IMG/VR virus record: IMGVR_UViG_2778261067_000006 | Span: 1-39,603 of that record | From: a virus | Taxonomy: Duplodnaviria; Heunggongvirae; Uroviricota; Caudoviricetes | Strand: one strand, 5' to 3' | DNA: 39,603 nt | Shown: one piece after another, positions 2,555 to 10,011 of the stretch | How positions within the stretch are numbered: position 1 is the first letter of the stretch | Layout: each line of letters starts with the position of its first letter | Made by a program: the position numbers and the translations under genes | Notes under the pieces: generated by a model | Told to the model about the DNA's origin: nothing | The model's database searches: none | The model's input: the letters and a program-made list of their open reading frames with translations, nothing else

Positions 2555-3224
2555 GGTTAACCTCCTGCGGCGGTTCTGGTAGCGGCATCCAGAACAAGGC
2601 GTTCCCTAACCAGGATAAAGTGCCGTCGCTCAACTCCACGTATTCCCCTTGCACCTGTCCTGCCATATACTCACCGTGCTTTGAATAAATTAAAATCCAA
2701 TCATCTTGAGCGGGCATTCGCTCACTACAGCTTATCCAACCATCCGGAGTTACCTGAGAATTGCCATTTACCAAGTCAGCTCGAACATATAGCGTGTCAT
2801 CATGGTGCTGATTGTGGCTGCACCACGTTAATTCGCTTAACTCGCCATCTTCTGGCCATACTCCAGCTGTTTGCAGCCAGATATGGGCTGGCGCATCCTG
2901 GCAAGGTGTATTAACTGGAAACTTGTAAGTTTGGCTTACAGGTTGGCCTCCCTGAAGCATGGCGGCGCGGTGACACCAGATAATCCAGCCAAGCGCCATA
3001 TCCCATGCCATGTATTCTCTATCGCCATTTTTCGCCCTGCGGCGATCTACAGATTCCCCGAAACGCTTCTCCATAAATAATTCATAGGCTGCTCGTTCAT
3101 CCGATACTGCTGCCAGTGATGCCAGTGCAATTCGTGCCAGTTCCATTTGTTCGCCACGGGTAAGCCCGTTTCCAAGCGGATTTTTAATGAATAATTCGAT
3201 ACGTTCTTTGGTAATAGAATTCAT
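2547..3224 (-). CDS. Phage accessory protein with a C-terminal DUF551-like domain
   Basis: 225-aa ORF; the C-terminal W/P/G-rich segment (...DGWISCSERMPAQDDWILIY...WMPLPEPP) resembles DUF551 of lambdoid early regions. Confidence 0.5.
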   Translation of the reverse strand: MNSITKERIELFIKNPLGNGLTRGEQMELARIALASLAAVSDERAAYELFMEKRFGESVDRRRAKNGDREYMAWDMALGWIIWCHRAAMLQGGQPVSQTYKFPVNTPCQDAPAHIWLQTAGVWPEDGELSELTWCSHNQHHDDTLYVRADLVNGNSQVTPDGWISCSERMPAQDDWILIYSKHGEYMAGQVQGEYVELSDGTLSWLGNALFWMPLPEPPQEVNRG

Positions 3225-3736
3225 GCCGCGTTTCCTTCTTTCTTATTAACAATTACACCGTCATATATTTCATTAAGGTGCCCTCTCAACTCCATGCGCC
3301 TTAATGCAGATAACATGTAATCGCATTCAACCTGCTTATTTCCAGTAAATGGCTTATCGTCAGGATTACCCCAACAGCAATTACCCTTGGGCCACCCATG
3401 TACTTTCCGTACTCTTCCGTTAACAACGTGAAGTAATCCCCAGCCAGGTGGTAAATCCTCAATTGAAATAATTCCCGGCTCACTAATAAAGAATCGCCAG
3501 TCGCCCATTCCAAGAGACGGATTTTTACGAAAACGCTTTTTTCTATCTGCCAACAAGTCAGCACGAGAACATTTCGCCTCTATCAGGCATGATGCTGAAT
3601 TTCTGAATCCCATAGCATCTGGCTGTTCTCCGGTACTGGTTACAGCTATAAAGCGGTCATGAAAACAAACCTTGAACCCGTTGCGCTTAAGGAATTTGTA
3701 CGCAATCTGACAGAGTTCGCGGTGTGTTAACGCCAT
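3221..3736 (-). CDS. Hypothetical protein with a PD-(D/E)xK-like motif
   Basis: Start placed at the internal ATG (3736) with an AAGGAG SD 7 nt upstream, which also removes the overlap with the upstream gene. Motif ...PDAMG...(12 aa)...LIEAK... is suggestive only. Confidence 0.45.
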   Translation of the reverse strand: MALTHRELCQIAYKFLKRNGFKVCFHDRFIAVTSTGEQPDAMGFRNSASCLIEAKCSRADLLADRKKRFRKNPSLGMGDWRFFISEPGIISIEDLPPGWGLLHVVNGRVRKVHGWPKGNCCWGNPDDKPFTGNKQVECDYMLSALRRMELRGHLNEIYDGVIVNKKEGNAA

Positions 3737-3737
3737 A

Positions 3738-4259
3738 TCACTCTCCTTTGATGCGAATGCCAGTAGCGCGGATTGCATCGATGACTTCAGAAACTTTGTA
3801 TGCCATTACCGTTTGGTAATCATCGTGAAAATCTGTTCGATGAAGCATGCTGCTACGTTCCGGGAGCAGTATTTCCCGCTCCTCCAGTTCTGCTATGCGC
3901 TTACTTCCATCCGCGATTACTCCCTCGTAATACTCGCGTTGCTCGTTGAGTTTTGATTTTGCTTCCTCAAGCTCAACACGCAGTTTCCCTACCGTTAGCG
4001 CAATATCCTCGTTCTCCTGGTCACGGCGTTTGATGTATTGCTTGTTTCTTTCCCGTTCATCCAGCAGTGCCAAAGAAATCTTTGGATTAAAGGCAGCAAT
4101 AAATTCAGCGTTGTTTTTCAGAACGTGTTGCGCAATGGCCTGACTACTTAGTCGGACCTCATAACCACGTGCGCCACGGTGTGGTTTATATGAGTCCCAG
4201 TCTCCCCACGTTGCTTTCTCTGCCGCTTCACGCAGTGCCTGATAGTCAATCTTGTTCAT
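3738..4259 (-). CDS. Ead/Ea22-like early-region protein
   Basis: 173-aa acidic coiled-coil-rich ORF; N-terminus MNKIDYQALREAAEKATWGDW resembles the Ead/Ea22 family of lambdoid phages. Confidence 0.55.
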   Translation of the reverse strand: MNKIDYQALREAAEKATWGDWDSYKPHRGARGYEVRLSSQAIAQHVLKNNAEFIAAFNPKISLALLDERERNKQYIKRRDQENEDIALTVGKLRVELEEAKSKLNEQREYYEGVIADGSKRIAELEEREILLPERSSMLHRTDFHDDYQTVMAYKVSEVIDAIRATGIRIKGE

Positions 4260-4260
4260 G

Positions 4261-4563
4261 TCACATCACCCTGAATCCGTTGCATTTACGTAAGAAATCG
4301 CAGATGTAGCCCTTCATTTTTTCGTGCCAATCTCGATCATTCCCATTGCACCAACCATCAGGTGGAGTCCAGTTTTCTATCAGAGCAGCCATTTTCTTTG
4401 CTTTCGCCGGAGTAGCTGTTGCGGTATCGCAGTAATGACGAGTGTCAACCAAAGCATCCATACCATCGATATCAAGTACGCAAAACCATGTGTGATTCGG
4501 AATTCCTACAGGTGGTATTTGTTGCCCACGTCGACGTTTATCAATAAGATATACACTCACTGC
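4261..4563 (-). CDS. Hypothetical early-region protein
   Basis: ORF-track ORF 4261..4581; likely GTG start at 4563 preceded by AAGGAGG. Confidence 0.45.
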
Positions 4564-5344: not shown

Positions 5345-5833
5345 TTATTTGATAAGAAGTGAAGGTTTCCCAACCTTGAGTTGAGCGCCTGGGATATTTA
5401 TTCCTGCTTTTAGTTGGTGCTTGATTGCCAACTTGTCGGCTTTAATTGTCGTTTCAAACTCAACGTATTCAGGAGGAAGGGCGCTTGAGTCGATGATTTC
5501 TACAGTTTCTGACGGTTTGCGGATTGTTACCTGGTGAATACCTGCTCGCATCTTTTTCTTGCCAACCATTTCAAGCGATGACGCTATATACGCCATAATG
5601 CTGTCAATCTTATTTTGAATTACTGCGGCTCGCTCATTTAGTGACTTTGCCTCTTCCTTGAGGCGTTCAGCATAACCAGATTCATTTTTAATGACGGAAA
5701 GAAGTTGCTCTATTTTATCGGTAAATTCTCCTTCCATGCCTTCTATTGTGTCAGCAATCATCTCTGGTTCTAAATCTGAATCCATCAATTTTGCGTATTC
5801 ATTGGCTATTTCATACAGTTTGCTCACTGGCAA
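5345..5833 (-). CDS. Gp157-like protein (Siphovirus_Gp157 family), recombination-module associated
   Basis: 162-aa acidic N-terminus/coiled-coil ORF immediately downstream of RecT; this family is commonly paired with RecT/Erf. Assigned from memory. Confidence 0.45.
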   Translation of the reverse strand: MPVSKLYEIANEYAKLMDSDLEPEMIADTIEGMEGEFTDKIEQLLSVIKNESGYAERLKEEAKSLNERAAVIQNKIDSIMAYIASSLEMVGKKKMRAGIHQVTIRKPSETVEIIDSSALPPEYVEFETTIKADKLAIKHQLKAGINIPGAQLKVGKPSLLIK

Positions 5834-6722
5834 CCTCCAGTTTCGCTTTGCATTCTATGTAAATGGCTTGTACGTTCTGCTGCAATTTCATTCCAGATGT
5901 CAGGCGATATGCTTCTGCAAAATATCGCTTCAAATCATCCATGTTTTCTGCCTGAGCCATTTCATCACAAAGAAGTTGTGCTTTATCCGTTATTTCCTGC
6001 TGGCGTTTCCGTTCATCTTCGCGGATATCTTCCTCTGATTTGTGCGGCATAACTGGTTCAGTCCACACACCTTCTTCTTCGTTTAGTACGTGAATAGCAC
6101 TATCAAGACGTGATGCCTTAGGCCAATACTTGCTTGCACGCTTTACGACCGTCTTTCGCGCCATCTCATTCCAGTGATTTACCCATGGTCCTTTATCGCT
6201 GAATGCCGCCTTGCTTGTTTTCCTTACAGCCTCAATTTCAGCCAGACTCATCTCTTCCGTTAGATAATCACCTGCTGGCGTCTTAACTGTGCAGTAAACG
6301 CCAACGATATCACCACGATCACCGAAGGCGTTGTATTTATGGGTTGGTGCTTTATCAAGCCCGTTTGACTCATAGGTATCGTTAGCATGAACAATTTTTG
6401 CCTGACCCCATGAGATAACACCAGACTCCATTGCAATATGGAGCAATCCCATATAGCTGATATCAAGGCAAACCATGCCATCGCGCGGAACCAGATAAGC
6501 CAGTTTGCTTGCAGGGTTTAAGGTGATGCCGATCGCCGCAACATTGATGATGGCGTTCTGTGCGCTGGTTGGATTTGCCAGTGCCGTTTTAGCCAGGTAA
6601 TCATTTTTCTGGAAATACTGAATTGCAAACTGGCTTTCCTTAGCCCATGTCACCGTATGTTCAGTCAATGCTCCGCAGAATAACTGCTCTTGCTGTTTAA
6701 CGAATTCAACGATATTGCTCAT
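5811..6722 (-). CDS. recT: RecT/Bet-family single-strand annealing recombinase
   Basis: 303-aa ORF; segment GPWVNHWNEMARKTVVKRASKYWP parallels RecT GPWVTHWEEMAKKTAIRRLFKYLP. Confidence 0.85.
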   Translation of the reverse strand: MSNIVEFVKQQEQLFCGALTEHTVTWAKESQFAIQYFQKNDYLAKTALANPTSAQNAIINVAAIGITLNPASKLAYLVPRDGMVCLDISYMGLLHIAMESGVISWGQAKIVHANDTYESNGLDKAPTHKYNAFGDRGDIVGVYCTVKTPAGDYLTEEMSLAEIEAVRKTSKAAFSDKGPWVNHWNEMARKTVVKRASKYWPKASRLDSAIHVLNEEEGVWTEPVMPHKSEEDIREDERKRQQEITDKAQLLCDEMAQAENMDDLKRYFAEAYRLTSGMKLQQNVQAIYIECKAKLEVASEQTV

Positions 6723-7111: not shown

Positions 7112-7282
7112 TCATGGGCGGCCTTGTTGTTTCAAAATATCCCAAAGCTTTTCGAGCAAACTTTTCATTCTTGGTTGTTTAAAGTCTGCTCCGGTTAAAA
7201 TATTCTTTCGTGAATGCTGTACCGATAAAATCGGGTTGAAAGGGCGAACCGATGCCGCCCCTGCAATAGCGAACTGTTGCAT
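7112..7282 (-). CDS. cIII: cIII-like protein (FtsH inhibitor-like)
   Basis: Start taken at the internal ATG (7282) with a GGAG SD. MQQFAIAG... and ...SLLEKLWDILKQQGRP resemble lambda CIII (MQYAIAG ... RLIDILNQPG). Position between N and the recombination module fits. Confidence 0.55.
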   Translation of the reverse strand: MQQFAIAGAASVRPFNPILSVQHSRKNILTGADFKQPRMKSLLEKLWDILKQQGRP

Positions 7283-7489
7283 AGGATGCTCCTTCTGTTT
7301 GATTGCATAACGAAAACGCCTCAAGTGAAGCGTTATTGGTATGCATATAAAAAAGCCATCACATAGGAGGGCAAAGAAGATTTCCAATAATCAGAACAAG
7401 TCGGCTCCTGTTTAGTTACGAGCGACATTGCTCCGTGTATTCACTCGTTGGAATGAATACACAGTGCAGTATTTATTCTGTTGTTTATG

Positions 7490-7517
7490 CTAAAAATAAA
7501 GGACGACTATGCGTCCT
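7490..7517 (-). terminator. Intrinsic terminator inside the leftward operon
   Basis: Minus strand: AGGACG-(loop)-CGTCCT followed by TTATTTTTAG, directly after the stop of the 7522..7887 gene. Confidence 0.5.
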
Positions 7518-7521
7518 GAAA

Positions 7522-7887
7522 TTACTTAACCAATGATGCTGCATATTCGATAAGGTAAAGTTTTGGAGCAAGCCAAATTTTCAGCCAGTCGAAATAATTG
7601 AAGAAAACAACAATAGAAGTAATCGCTATTCCTGATGTAACAAGTAGTGATAAAAGAACAATATCTGCATCATCTCCTTTATTCCATGCAAAAATCATCA
7701 GATAAACACACGCTATAATCACCAATACACAGATAGCCTGAATTCCAGCTGATGATACGGCGTGCCACATCAAAAGCTGATGGATGACATCAGGAATCTG
7801 TGCCTGGCTAAATGAAACAGCCGCGTCTATTCCATTGCTGGCTTTTTGCAGTAGTTCTACGAGAATCTTGTTTGCTTGTTCTTCCAT
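7522..7887 (-). CDS. Small integral membrane protein (121 aa) in the sieB-like position
   Basis: ORF with an AAGGTGA SD; soluble N-terminus followed by two to three hydrophobic helices; flanked on both sides by terminator hairpins. Confidence 0.55.
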   Translation of the reverse strand: MEEQANKILVELLQKASNGIDAAVSFSQAQIPDVIHQLLMWHAVSSAGIQAICVLVIIACVYLMIFAWNKGDDADIVLLSLLVTSGIAITSIVVFFNYFDWLKIWLAPKLYLIEYAASLVK

Positions 7888-7928
7888 ATATCACCTTGAT
7901 TGTAATAAGCATGAAATTATTTACGGCT

Positions 7929-7959
7929 AAAAAATAAAGGCCACCATCAGGCAGCCTTG
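7929..7959 (-). terminator. Intrinsic terminator after the ral-position gene
   Basis: Minus strand: 9-bp stem (two G-U pairs), loop TGAT, then TATTTTTTA; the loop overlaps the stop codon of the 7947..8198 ORF. Confidence 0.45.
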
Positions 7960-8198
7960 TTGTAAATGTTGCAGGTATCAAGTAAGTAATTAGATGGAGC
8001 GCCATAAATTATGAATTCATCGTTTGTCGGGTCCATCTCCATCTCTTGGCCTATTGCCATTCTTGCGTCAGTGTCATCAGCGGCGAAGCATAAAACAGCC
8101 CACGCACCCATTGTTTTAAAAAGAACTGCAATTGGCTGTGGTTTTACTGAATTTGCGTTAGCGCGAAAATCATAAATCGCACTTTCATGAAATTCCAT
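7947..8198 (-). CDS. Hypothetical early protein in the ral/gene-17 position
   Basis: 83-aa ORF immediately downstream of N; no family recognised with confidence. Confidence 0.45.
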   Translation of the reverse strand: MEFHESAIYDFRANANSVKPQPIAVLFKTMGAWAVLCFAADDTDARMAIGQEMEMDPTNDEFIIYGAPSNYLLDTCNIYNKAA

Positions 8199-8206
8199 AT
8201 ATCACC

Positions 8207-8506
8207 TCAAATAAGTGGTTTGCTGCCTAATTTCATTTTCTGGCGACCAACACAAGTCACACCCATTTCACTGCGTGGCTTGCGGTAGTAAATACGATTC
8301 TGTTTACTCTCGACTTCTTCTGTCTTCTTGCAGCGAAGGCTTCCGAGTGATGCTGCTTTGTCTGCTCTGACGCAACCAGAGAGCTTTAGCGCAATTTTTC
8401 GCGCCAGTCGCTGTTCTTGCATTGCCTGTTCACGTTGATCCTGTCTGCGTGCTCTGCGGCGATTTCTGGCGTTATCGTCAGCCAGATATGTAATGACTAC
8501 TGTCAT
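8207..8506 (-). CDS. N: Antitermination protein N
   Basis: N-terminal arginine-rich motif (NARNRRRARRQDQRE); C-terminus ...YYRKPRSEMGVTCVGRQKMKLGSKPLI parallels lambda N ...WYSKPGERGITCSGRQKIKGKSIPLI; GGAGGT SD. Confidence 0.85.
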   Translation of the reverse strand: MTVVITYLADDNARNRRRARRQDQREQAMQEQRLARKIALKLSGCVRADKAASLGSLRCKKTEEVESKQNRIYYRKPRSEMGVTCVGRQKMKLGSKPLI

Positions 8507-8689: not shown

Positions 8690-8736
8690 CTGCCAATCTG
8701 TTCCGTTTGGCTTCCAGCGTCCTGCTGATGGCTAAA

Positions 8737-8833
8737 GAATACTGTAGGTATTTTATTGTGTAAATACCCAAGGTATTTATTTTTGATGAAATAATGATAA
8801 ACAAATGAATACAAAGGATATTTATTTTTTCGC
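8737..8833 (-). promoter_or_regulatory. OL operators (three AATAC-N5-GTATT-type sites) with PL
   Basis: Sites at 8737-8753, 8762-8778 and 8817-8833 (the third degenerate). Minus strand has -35 TTTACA, a 17-nt spacer and -10 TATTCT overlapping them. Confidence 0.55.
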
Positions 8834-8908: not shown

Positions 8909-9277
8909 TTAGTCAGCGAAGGTTAAGACGAGAATTACCTTAATGATGTCTGCTACAACAGACACGGCCATAGATAAACCAAAGACGATCCAAGCCACAG
9001 TGATGTCTTCACTACCATCGTATAGAGTTCCGTAATCACTGGTGTAAGGCGTAAATGTCGCGCCTTGATACAATAGGTATAAGCTTGATCCATAGAGGAT
9101 AAATGCAGATATCCCTTGTATTGCTATGATCACAAGAATCATGAAACGAGCTGATCTATGCGCCCAAGCCTGGCTTATTTTTTCTGATAGAGATTTCGCA
9201 ATAAAAGCATGCGCTAAGCCGTAAATTGTCGAGATTGCCAACATCGCAAAAAAGCTTGCTATAGCGGTTCCAACCAT
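8909..9277 (-). CDS. Small three-helix integral membrane protein encoded immediately downstream of cI
   Basis: ORF-track ORF 8909..9298 begins at a TTG overlapping the cI stop; an in-frame ATG at 9277 has an AAGGGG SD. Three predicted TM segments; same strand as cI with no terminator between. Confidence 0.55.
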   Translation of the reverse strand: MVGTAIASFFAMLAISTIYGLAHAFIAKSLSEKISQAWAHRSARFMILVIIAIQGISAFILYGSSLYLLYQGATFTPYTSDYGTLYDGSEDITVAWIVFGLSMAVSVVADIIKVILVLTFAD

Positions 9278-9294
9278 AATCGCCCCTTGCGTGA

Positions 9295-10011
9295 TCAAAC
9301 CAGCCTTAGTTTTGTCTCAATTGCAACGCCTATAATCTTGCAGTTTCCATTGATTGGCACGAGAGGCCATGCAGGATTAAGTCCCTTGAGGTATTTATTT
9401 CCGCCGTCGATTATCAGCTTCTTGAATGTTGCTTCGTTAGAGTCAGAAAGTTTTGCTATGACCAAGCTGCCGTTGATCGCCTCCCTTCCGGTATCGAAAA
9501 GAACGAATGTTCCCTCTGGAATGCTTAACCCAACCGGTGCCGTCATTGAATCACCTTCCACTTTAAGCCAAAACGCATTACCTTGAATATGCGCGTCAGA
9601 CTCAAGCCAAACATCTATGTCTTTAATGGTGTATGGTTCGCATGCTTCACACCACGAGCCAGCCTGGATACTGCTTAACACCGGATACCTCTTTCCTGCT
9701 CTGTATTCCCCTGCATACCTTACGTTGGCATCGCTCTTAAGGCTTTCTGCCTGTTCTGCAACCTTGGCAGCAATTGACTGGCTAAAATCAGCAATTGAGA
9801 CTTGCAACAATCGCGCAAAACCAGATGCAACCTCAACGTTTAGCGCGTTTCTGCCATTAAGATAATGCCCTACCGCTCCTTGGGTGATACCCAGTTCATC
9901 AGCGATTGAGTATTGGGTTATTCCCAATTCTTTCTTTTTTGACTCATACAAAGCCTTAAGCCGCTTAGCGTCTTCGAGCTGTTCTGTCGTCAGTGATTTT
10001 TTATTTTCCAT
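9295..10011 (-). CDS. cI: CI repressor (lambda-type, HTH N-terminus and LexA-like autocleavage C-terminus)
   Basis: 238 aa; ...LTTEQLEDAKRLKALYESKKKELGITQ... parallels lambda CI ...[27 protein letters not shown]...; C-terminal ...FWLKVEGDSMTAP... carries the S24 peptidase motif. Confidence 0.9.
   Translation of the reverse strand: MENKKSLTTEQLEDAKRLKALYESKKKELGITQYSIADELGITQGAVGHYLNGRNALNVEVASGFARLLQVSIADFSQSIAAKVAEQAESLKSDANVRYAGEYRAGKRYPVLSSIQAGSWCEACEPYTIKDIDVWLESDAHIQGNAFWLKVEGDSMTAPVGLSIPEGTFVLFDTGREAINGSLVIAKLSDSNEATFKKLIIDGGNKYLKGLNPAWPLVPINGNCKIIGVAIETKLRLV

Follow-up and report, generated by a model that had tools for sequence, protein, structure and literature searches.

A small membrane protein gene of the PHROG 3054 family in the early-left operon of a lambdoid phage: flanking terminators, expression and possible roles

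Several described phage systems bear on the small membrane protein gene discussed here. In N antitermination, RNA polymerase modified by the N protein reads past terminators. The sieB gene adjoins N in lambda, P22 and Oslo and is on the opposite strand, antisense to the early-left promoter pL; for sieB of P22, a separate promoter and RNA start have been mapped. Its product aborts the lytic growth of a phage that superinfects a lysogen. T4 Imm is a small, non-essential, early protein of the inner membrane that blocks entry of secondary phage DNA in lytic infection. Morons, in the sense of Juhala et al. (2000), are genes inserted between neighbors that are adjacent in relatives, with a promoter and a terminator of their own. 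The gene in question here (the target gene) encodes a 121-amino-acid (aa) membrane protein and lies in a 39,603-nucleotide (nt) viral DNA (Caudoviricetes; IMG/VR record IMGVR_UViG_2778261067_000006, positions 1 to 39,603). We call this whole stretch the window; it holds a lambdoid immunity and early region on its minus strand (Table 1). A sequence-only reading had described the gene as an insulated moron in the sieB position. The analysis below indicates that it is most likely a pL-driven, N-dependent early gene and not a self-scheduled moron.

The open reading frame (ORF) is a genuine gene for a small membrane protein, since its product matches PHROG 3054 from end to end (E 9.3e-47; residues 1-121 on profile positions 1-137 of 137), a protein search returned 574 relatives, and the ends of the gene show signs of purifying selection, as we discuss below. 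Just 5' of the ATG, GAGGTGA or AAGGTGA is kept in nearly all lambdoid-type upstream contexts. The guanine-plus-cytosine (GC) content of the gene is 38.5% against 46.5% for the window, and falls to 33% in its center. Proteins of HK633 and of Salmonella phages (e.g., SPN9CC) are 100% identical to the target protein, and Sf6 gene 34 matches over the 5' 124 nt with 96% identity. The sequence is thus already in the databases as a hypothetical protein, and an accessory small membrane gene in a variable slot of lambdoid phages is of a familiar kind; only the description of the breadth of the family, of its design with conserved ends and a swapped center, and of its two preferred slots is new. In HK633 (JQ086377), a siphovirus according to its taxonomy line, the identical 121-aa ORF is annotated merely as a 58-aa fragment, HK633_044 (HK633 locus coordinates 3176-3352), and the upstream gene as a 130-aa extended form that overlaps the target ORF (HK633 locus coordinates 3462-3851). 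This annotation of the two genes looks like an error.

The overall reading that we favor, and hold tentatively, is of an N-dependent accessory gene of the pL operon whose product acts in the envelope, in conflict during lytic growth. We are highly confident of identity and regulation but have little confidence in the specific function, and this grade reflects both. The gene would be a genuine accessory member of the pL (early-left) operon without a recognizable promoter of its own. RNA polymerase starting at pL and modified by N would read through the upstream terminator, t1, so that the target would be expressed as a delayed-early gene of the lytic cycle, or as an immediate-early one in those relatives whose copy abuts N. 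Both t1 and the downstream terminator, t2, would be ordinary operon terminators that N can override, and would mark the recombination boundaries of the cassette as well. The product would be a hairpin protein of the inner membrane with two transmembrane (TM) helices, in which the functional parts would be an acidic N-terminal helix and a Trp-rich C-terminal helix on the same side of the membrane, and the center (TM1-loop-TM2) a fast-evolving module swapped by recombination. It would act on the envelope during lytic growth, in conflict between phages or between phage and host. Of the roles considered, protection of the infected cell from secondary infection, in the manner of T4 Imm though without relation to it, would be the likeliest form of this action, although we regard it as rather doubtful.

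The evidence on transcription comes from gene order and from related loci. Matches to PHROG profiles confirm the order N, 83-aa gene, target, cIII, which agrees with the earlier placement of the target between a ral-position gene and cIII; the N gene product also has a weak Pfam match to N_peptide. From the lambdoid gene order, we infer that the promoter-like site between the cI-side genes and N is pL. A promoter scan found no site at threshold between t1 and the ATG of the target gene. Among 80 related viral loci, 67 have a recognizable upstream gene, namely N (31 loci), ral (23), the 83-aa gene (7) or antisense sieB (6), and the target has the orientation of N in all 67, including 61 of the 61 with N, ral or the 83-aa gene upstream. 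In 19 of the 80 it starts about 6-23 nt from the stop codon of N, with a ribosome-binding site that overlaps this codon, which leaves no room for a promoter or a terminator. A target gene abutting N in this way should share with N a transcript from pL, and the first terminator of the operon would be the one that follows the target gene. In the window, the 83-aa gene and t1 intervene, so expression should need N-modified polymerase, and we infer N-dependent, delayed-early expression. The sequence-only reading had the gene expressed on its own schedule; this does not fit a leader in which the best promoter match is 8 of 12, nor the constant orientation and the packing against N. A further promoter-like site (TGGACC-16-CATAAT, 9 of 12) is present at 8008-8035 on the minus strand, within the 83-aa gene and upstream of t1, which would end any transcript from this site after a short distance. 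The site is not conserved where ral replaces the 83-aa gene.

Both flanking intrinsic terminators are real, as had been claimed from the letters alone. The minus-strand scan gives t1 a 9-bp stem followed by TATTTTTT and t2 a 6-bp stem followed by TTATTTTT; t2 starts 4 nt past the stop codon of the target gene, and the stop codon of the 83-aa gene sits within the loop of t1. Their RNA folds (-13.9 kcal/mol, z -2.66 for t1; -7.6 kcal/mol, z -2.84 for t2) were equaled in energy by only 2 of 200 shuffles, and the 6-kb region holds 10 terminator-like sites against 5.1 +/- 2.3 in shuffled sequence. In mEp234 and HK106, the sequence that aligns with t1 carries an annotation as a rho-independent terminator, and a t1-type terminator is found upstream in about half of 77 related loci. 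Behind the target gene, a hairpin with a T-run follows the stop codon in 62 of the 80 related viral loci, where the background is 4.5% per 90-nt window, and at least eight unrelated hairpin sequences occupy this position. In a broader set of loci a terminator follows the stop in 12 of 37, and the hairpins of distant relatives are quite different. With t1 and t2 both real, unmodified RNA polymerase should stop on either side of the target gene, and the earlier expectation that N-independent transcripts would end around it is supported to the extent that such flanking terminators predict it.

The terminators also appear to mark where the gene has been gained or lost. The target gene is absent from the close relatives mEp234 and HK106, in keeping with an inserted accessory gene; there the terminator of the 83-aa gene joins directly the sequence that follows t2 in the window, with the junction within CCTTTATTTTT common to both terminator tails. 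On the upstream side, t1 and a 45-nt leader precede the target gene both behind the 83-aa gene and behind ral, as in CUS-3 and an E. coli prophage, where ral ends in the same hairpin as t1. The homology begins inside the last codons of the upstream gene in both contexts. Since ral and the 83-aa gene both end in ...NKAA* within the same hairpin, a mosaic boundary lies in the last codons of two unrelated genes. At the fourth position of the t2 stem, the bases are C-G in CUS-3, A-T in the window, A·G in HK633 and C·T in the E. coli prophage, a pattern that suggests exchange within the hairpin. Thus t1 and t2 would have a second role, in delimiting by recombination a gene whose presence varies between relatives. 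The 83-aa gene (PHROG 2471), which is similar to VT2-Sakai p20, alternates with ral upstream of the cassette.

Within the gene, the ends and the center differ in how they vary. Polymorphisms of the 121-aa type comprise 1 nonsynonymous and 4 synonymous in the 5' part, 1 nonsynonymous (a stop codon) and 9 synonymous in the 3' part, and 13 nonsynonymous and 10 synonymous in the center; the ends together (2 nonsynonymous to 13 synonymous) differ from the center (Fisher p = 0.016). These counts point to purifying selection on the ends, with the center probably relaxed or diversifying. The 121-, 140- and 149-aa types of E. coli phages share 95-97% identity over the first 102 nt, while their centers are unalignable, as are those of the window, CUS-3 and Oslo, which have nearly identical gene ends. 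There are discrete length types of 120-149 aa, and types other than these three carry many synonymous differences in the gene ends. The ends would therefore be both selectively constrained and recombination arms, and the center would consist of discrete exchangeable types. In two IMG/VR loci of the 121-aa type, Trp101 of the C-terminal motif is replaced by an in-frame stop (NYFD*LKIW), and these two copies are apparently pseudogenized.

The PHROG 3054 family is large. A profile search of 1.84 billion representatives reached 4,686 clusters (at 50% identity) with E <= 1e-3, and 1,930 with E <= 1e-10; lengths among the 150 listed matches are 103-184 aa, and those inspected have the same architecture. 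The first ~43 and the last ~22 residues are conserved across phages, and TM1, the loop and TM2 vary freely, with loops from 8 to more than 40 residues. Three alignments give the motifs F..P....QLL.W at the N-terminus and WLKIW.APKLYL.EYA at the C-terminus, flanking the two TM helices; F26, P32, Q37 and W41 are invariant in one family alignment and K109 in 147 diverse representatives, and the C-terminal motif is kept in the homologs of N4-like, phi92-like and Vibrio phages. Members occur in temperate and virulent phages of Proteobacteria. The virulent homologs lie in early or middle gene clusters, as in the N4-like phage SP-058 (after the RNA polymerase genes), the phi92-like BME3 and many Vibrio phages. 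In virulent-looking contigs of 46-48 kb, which have no recognized lysogeny genes in the 10 kb examined, the homolog closes a series of small genes, with ParB-like or Dam genes among them, that looks like an early operon. Homologs in bacterial genomes are found in Enterobacterales, Pseudomonas, Thalassotalea and Alcaligenaceae. The copy in Pseudomonas lundensis (locus coordinates 4001-4498) hardly differs from the enterobacterial ones in its N- and C-terminal segments. It is isolated between the terminase and portal genes, on the opposite strand and with a terminator, and may have reached this moron-like position by recent horizontal transfer. In general, the family may be a mobile accessory gene, carried along in most cases by whichever operon, early or late, it has entered. 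A conserved partner gene was sought and rejected, the small ORFs that precede the homolog in the window, in a 47-kb siphophage contig and in SP-058 being mutually unrelated.

The earlier estimate of two to three TM helices agrees with the models of the protein. Kyte-Doolittle hydropathy clearly marks residues ~44-68 and 76-98 as TM segments and shows a Trp-rich, amphipathic helix at the C-terminus; an AlphaFold2 model built on a 92-sequence alignment has three helices (2-70, 74-97 and 100-120; mean predicted local distance difference test score 77), with the confidence peaking in the TM hairpin. Exactly two hydrophobic segments are present in 253 of 269 family members. Among members with loops longer than 12 aa, the loop is richer in Lys/Arg than both terminal flanks in 188 of 213, and the N-terminal flank has almost none. 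Such a charge bias predicts a cytoplasmic loop and periplasmic termini, so that the conserved ends would face the periplasm. The model has no structural match in the PDB, and its matches in a viral structure library are uncharacterized homologs only.

Annotation resources and the literature add little on function. No Pfam domain was found in 120 close relatives or in the 147 diverse ones, which gave just scattered TM noise; the PDB, NCBIfam and PADLOC hold no annotation for the family, and NCBIfam gave only noise for the target protein. A literature search found nothing on PHROG 3054 or Sf6 gene 34, including in accessory-gene screens and in work on extra genes of lysis cassettes. Deletions that arose in experimental evolution of Sf6 affected the nin region and not gene 34.

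Three other explanations have to be considered together with the observations that weigh against our own. According to one, the gene is a self-contained moron, insulated by terminators, with its own promoter in the lysogen and a SieB-like role in exclusion of superinfecting phages. A terminator after the gene in most loci, formed by unrelated hairpins, is the classic hallmark of such genes, and a terminator of its own is useful to a gene only against polymerase unmodified by N; terminators that polymerase passes only when modified by N do not in themselves account for this frequent terminator, which counts against our reading. So does the promoter-like match in the leader (TGGCCT-16-AATAAT, 7943-7916), which is weak and was found only on relaxing the scan, in a leader that is conserved in the ral and 83-aa contexts. 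Presence/absence polymorphism, the low GC content and the solitary, terminated copy of P. lundensis fit a moron as well. However, the scan found no promoter at threshold, low GC is expected from the codons of TM segments, and the gene keeps the orientation of N and is tightly packed, abutting N in the 19 loci above and Rz in at least five prophages. The family is moreover present in virulent phages, which have no lysogenic state, and it is unrelated to SieB and SieA and coexists with sieB in Oslo. We consider a self-contained moron improbable. A role in lysis, as an antiholin-like or envelope-stabilizing protein that tunes when or how the inner membrane or envelope fails, is suggested by other neighborhoods. 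When 127 neighboring ORFs from 32 diverse genomic loci were scanned with Pfam, the Rz spanin was the commonest family (6 hits), and DUF2514, three M15 endolysins, two GH19 and one lysozyme endolysin and one holin were also found. The homolog lies directly after Rz, with a gap of a few nt or an overlap, in prophages of Buttiauxella, Dryocola, Proteus, Providencia and Xenorhabdus, so that the slot is used in at least 5 of the 32. In two Yersinia prophages, the run of ORFs that it follows was interpreted by eye as a holin, an M15 endolysin and a spanin-like pair; Pfam matched neither ORF of this pair, and Peptidase_M15_4 is present in the census. In a 46-kb phage the homolog is 1.6 kb upstream of holin and lysozyme genes. 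A gene located after Rz should be a late gene there, which fits exclusion less and hints at lysis, and the post-Rz and Yersinia loci thus weigh against our reading. Early-expressed antiholins also exist (T4 rI). On the other hand, accessory genes are known to collect behind Rz (bor in lambda), and adjacency to Rz may therefore not be functional. The window and most E. coli and Salmonella relatives carry the gene in the early-left operon, far from lysis genes; the family accompanies many unrelated types of holin, yet its conserved parts barely vary; and neither the target protein nor the 147 diverse members match Pfam holin or antiholin families. A lysis role is, in our view, unlikely.

Similarly unlikely, on present evidence, is a counter-defense or host-takeover factor that binds a conserved inner-membrane protein of the host or of a prophage, the candidate targets being membrane-acting abortive-infection effectors (SieB, Rex-like) or a housekeeping complex. 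A conserved target would be in keeping with termini that are near-identical among phages of Enterobacterales, Vibrio, Pseudomonas and Alcaligenaceae; the gene is located among the anti-defense genes ral, gene 17-like, Lar, Acb2/Tad1 and abc2; and such a factor would be of use early in infection to virulent and temperate phages alike. Against this, the preceding ORFs compared in the window, the 47-kb contig and SP-058 include no conserved neighbor, PADLOC matches of the target protein to two-TM effectors are insignificant (E 0.06-0.09), and a fixed target explains poorly the hypervariable center and its discrete types. The near-identity of the termini bears on our own reading too, since in phages that differ in virions and hosts it is a better fit to a conserved host target, or to self-assembly, than to recognition of a particular phage. 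Two further points count against an envelope protein acting in conflict: the loop of the target protein is short and acidic, so that the charge rule gives it an ambiguous topology, and the literature search found no characterized homolog.

The poor support for a SieB-like insulated moron makes the locus less unusual than it had been flagged to be. The interest lies more with the family. It is conceivable, although we would call it speculative, that PHROG 3054 is an unrecognized, widespread class of envelope-acting proteins, in which the periplasmic end helices carry one common activity and the swapped center sets its specificity. If this is true, the common activity would be to block secondary DNA entry or to control envelope breakdown, and the family would be a modular system of a constant effector with an exchangeable cassette, shared by temperate and virulent phages of Proteobacteria. 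For a family of several thousand clusters with no Pfam or NCBIfam model, solved structure or publication found, a function would annotate thousands of hypothetical phage proteins together. The combination of conserved ends and a swapped center makes the family an attractive target, and it is tractable in HK633, Sf6 and CUS-3.

The surroundings of the gene, in the window and elsewhere, deserve brief mention. Between t2 and cIII are two further hairpins. That at 7345-7385 is a degenerate copy of a terminator annotated in mEp234, with one stem mismatch (-4.5 kcal/mol, z -0.2); the terminator is intact in mEp234 and HK106 (GCCCTCCAGTGTGAGGGC there). The other, at 7315-7334, is just 5' of the start of cIII (-9.9 kcal/mol, z -2.8). 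Rfam detected no known RNA family anywhere in the window. A multi-TM ORF of 129 aa begins just where the cI-type repressor gene ends, which is the place of rexAB in lambda, and its location downstream of cI makes it a better candidate for exclusion or defense expressed from the prophage than the target gene. In related loci, genes typical of conflict or accessory functions adjoin the target gene, in line with our reading: ral, sieB, a gene-17-like 'superinfection exclusion protein', Lar, Acb2/Tad1, methylases and KilA-N. ANT, HNH and abc2 are also found. In the E. coli MS6192 prophage the cassette is followed by a 103-aa gene (locus coordinates 2043-2354) annotated in RefSeq as a superinfection exclusion protein; it has the length and the position of P22 gene 17, and conflict genes are densely packed in this slot.

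Table 1. Features of the lambdoid immunity and early region of the window that bear on the target gene
Feature	Coordinates	Strand	Basis or remark
Target gene, 121-aa membrane protein, PHROG 3054 / Sf6 gene 34 family	7522..7887	-	stop codon 7522-7524
Shine-Dalgarno AAGGTG of target gene	7892..7897	-	4 nt before ATG; direct sequence reading
Conserved 5' part, codons 1-43, acidic N-terminal helix	7759..7887	-	polymorphism counts and alignments
Hypervariable center, codons 44-98, TM1-loop-TM2	7594..7758	-	unalignable across types
Conserved 3' part, codons 99-121, motif DWLKIWLAPKLYLIEYAASLVK	7525..7593	-	polymorphism counts and alignments
Upstream intrinsic terminator t1	7927..7958	-	stem-loop 7937-7958, T-tract 7927-7936; terminator scan and RNA fold
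Downstream intrinsic terminator t2	7490..7517	-	stem-loop 7500-7517, T-tract 7490-7499; terminator scan and RNA fold
Two further hairpins between t2 and cIII	7315..7385	-	alignment with mEp234 and HK106; folds; scan
83-aa gene, PHROG 2471	7947..8198	-	E 1e-60; occupies ral position of relatives
N antiterminator gene	8207..8506	-	PHROG 271, anti-termination protein N-like, E 4e-36
Promoter-like site at expected pL position, TTTACA-17-TATTCT	8736..8764	-	promoter scan
129-aa membrane ORF, PHROG 6534	8909-9298	-	
cI-type repressor	9295-10011	-	
cIII	7112..7282	-	PHROG 550 (CIII), E 4e-22, residues 36-91; start Met36 of 7112-7387 ORF
kil-like and recombination genes	5811-6722 and nearby	-	

How, then, does the target gene compare with the systems described at the outset? 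Homology to SieB is ruled out: the target protein has no match to SieB (PF14163) in Pfam at E <= 1 and no BLASTP alignment with lambda SieB, and hhalign of the family alignment against that of SieB gives a probability of 0.2%. The sequence-only reading had itself seen no obvious SieB similarity. The profile searches that it suggested gave no SieB match, and PADLOC gave only the insignificant hits above. P22 SieA was likewise found to be unrelated. Nor is the gene in the sieB position as had been stated, since true sieB adjoins N in antisense, whereas the target is on the N strand, two genes from N, in the slot that follows ral or the 83-aa gene and that ea10 occupies in lambda; in Oslo sieB and a PHROG 3054 member stand side by side. 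What the target shares with SieB of lambda and P22 is that each is a small membrane protein encoded in the accessory stretch between N and cIII. SieB has 179-192 aa, and P22 sieB has an internal Esc start; the target has 121 aa, and its gene runs in the direction of pL without a detectable promoter of its own.

The likeness to the morons lambda bor and HK97 gp15 is closer in some respects: the target gene is likewise present or absent between neighbors that are otherwise adjacent, has its own terminator and is lower in GC. It differs from classical morons in lacking a detectable autonomous promoter, and in having the same orientation as the upstream gene, to which it is often translationally adjacent. 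Of the notion of an insulated moron, the inserted gene and its own terminator, t2, stand, and the autonomous promoter is doubtful. With N4 gp62 and antiholins, the target shares its size and two-TM hairpin, and some members of the family end lysis cassettes; unlike lysis regulators, however, the target gene of the window is in the early-left operon, outside the lysis cassette. Homology to the lysis regulator N4 gp62 is ruled out (hhalign probability 0.3%), and CSP1_021 (an antiholin with one TM) and LysZ of Actinobacteria phages were set aside as unrelated by their descriptions. The full-length homologs of the target protein are HK633_044, CUS-3 ECRS218_0047, Oslo AMBK_46, SP-058 SP058_00130 and Sf6 gene 34. 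All are annotated as hypothetical; they share its architecture and conserved termini, with no structural difference, and the lambdoid ones also share its genomic slot. T4 Imm (PF14373) is an analogy in working only, there being no Pfam match of the target protein to it at E <= 1 and none among the 147 diverse members at E <= 0.01. In comparison with Imm, the family of the target is far more widespread, and its genes are found in late-operon slots as well.

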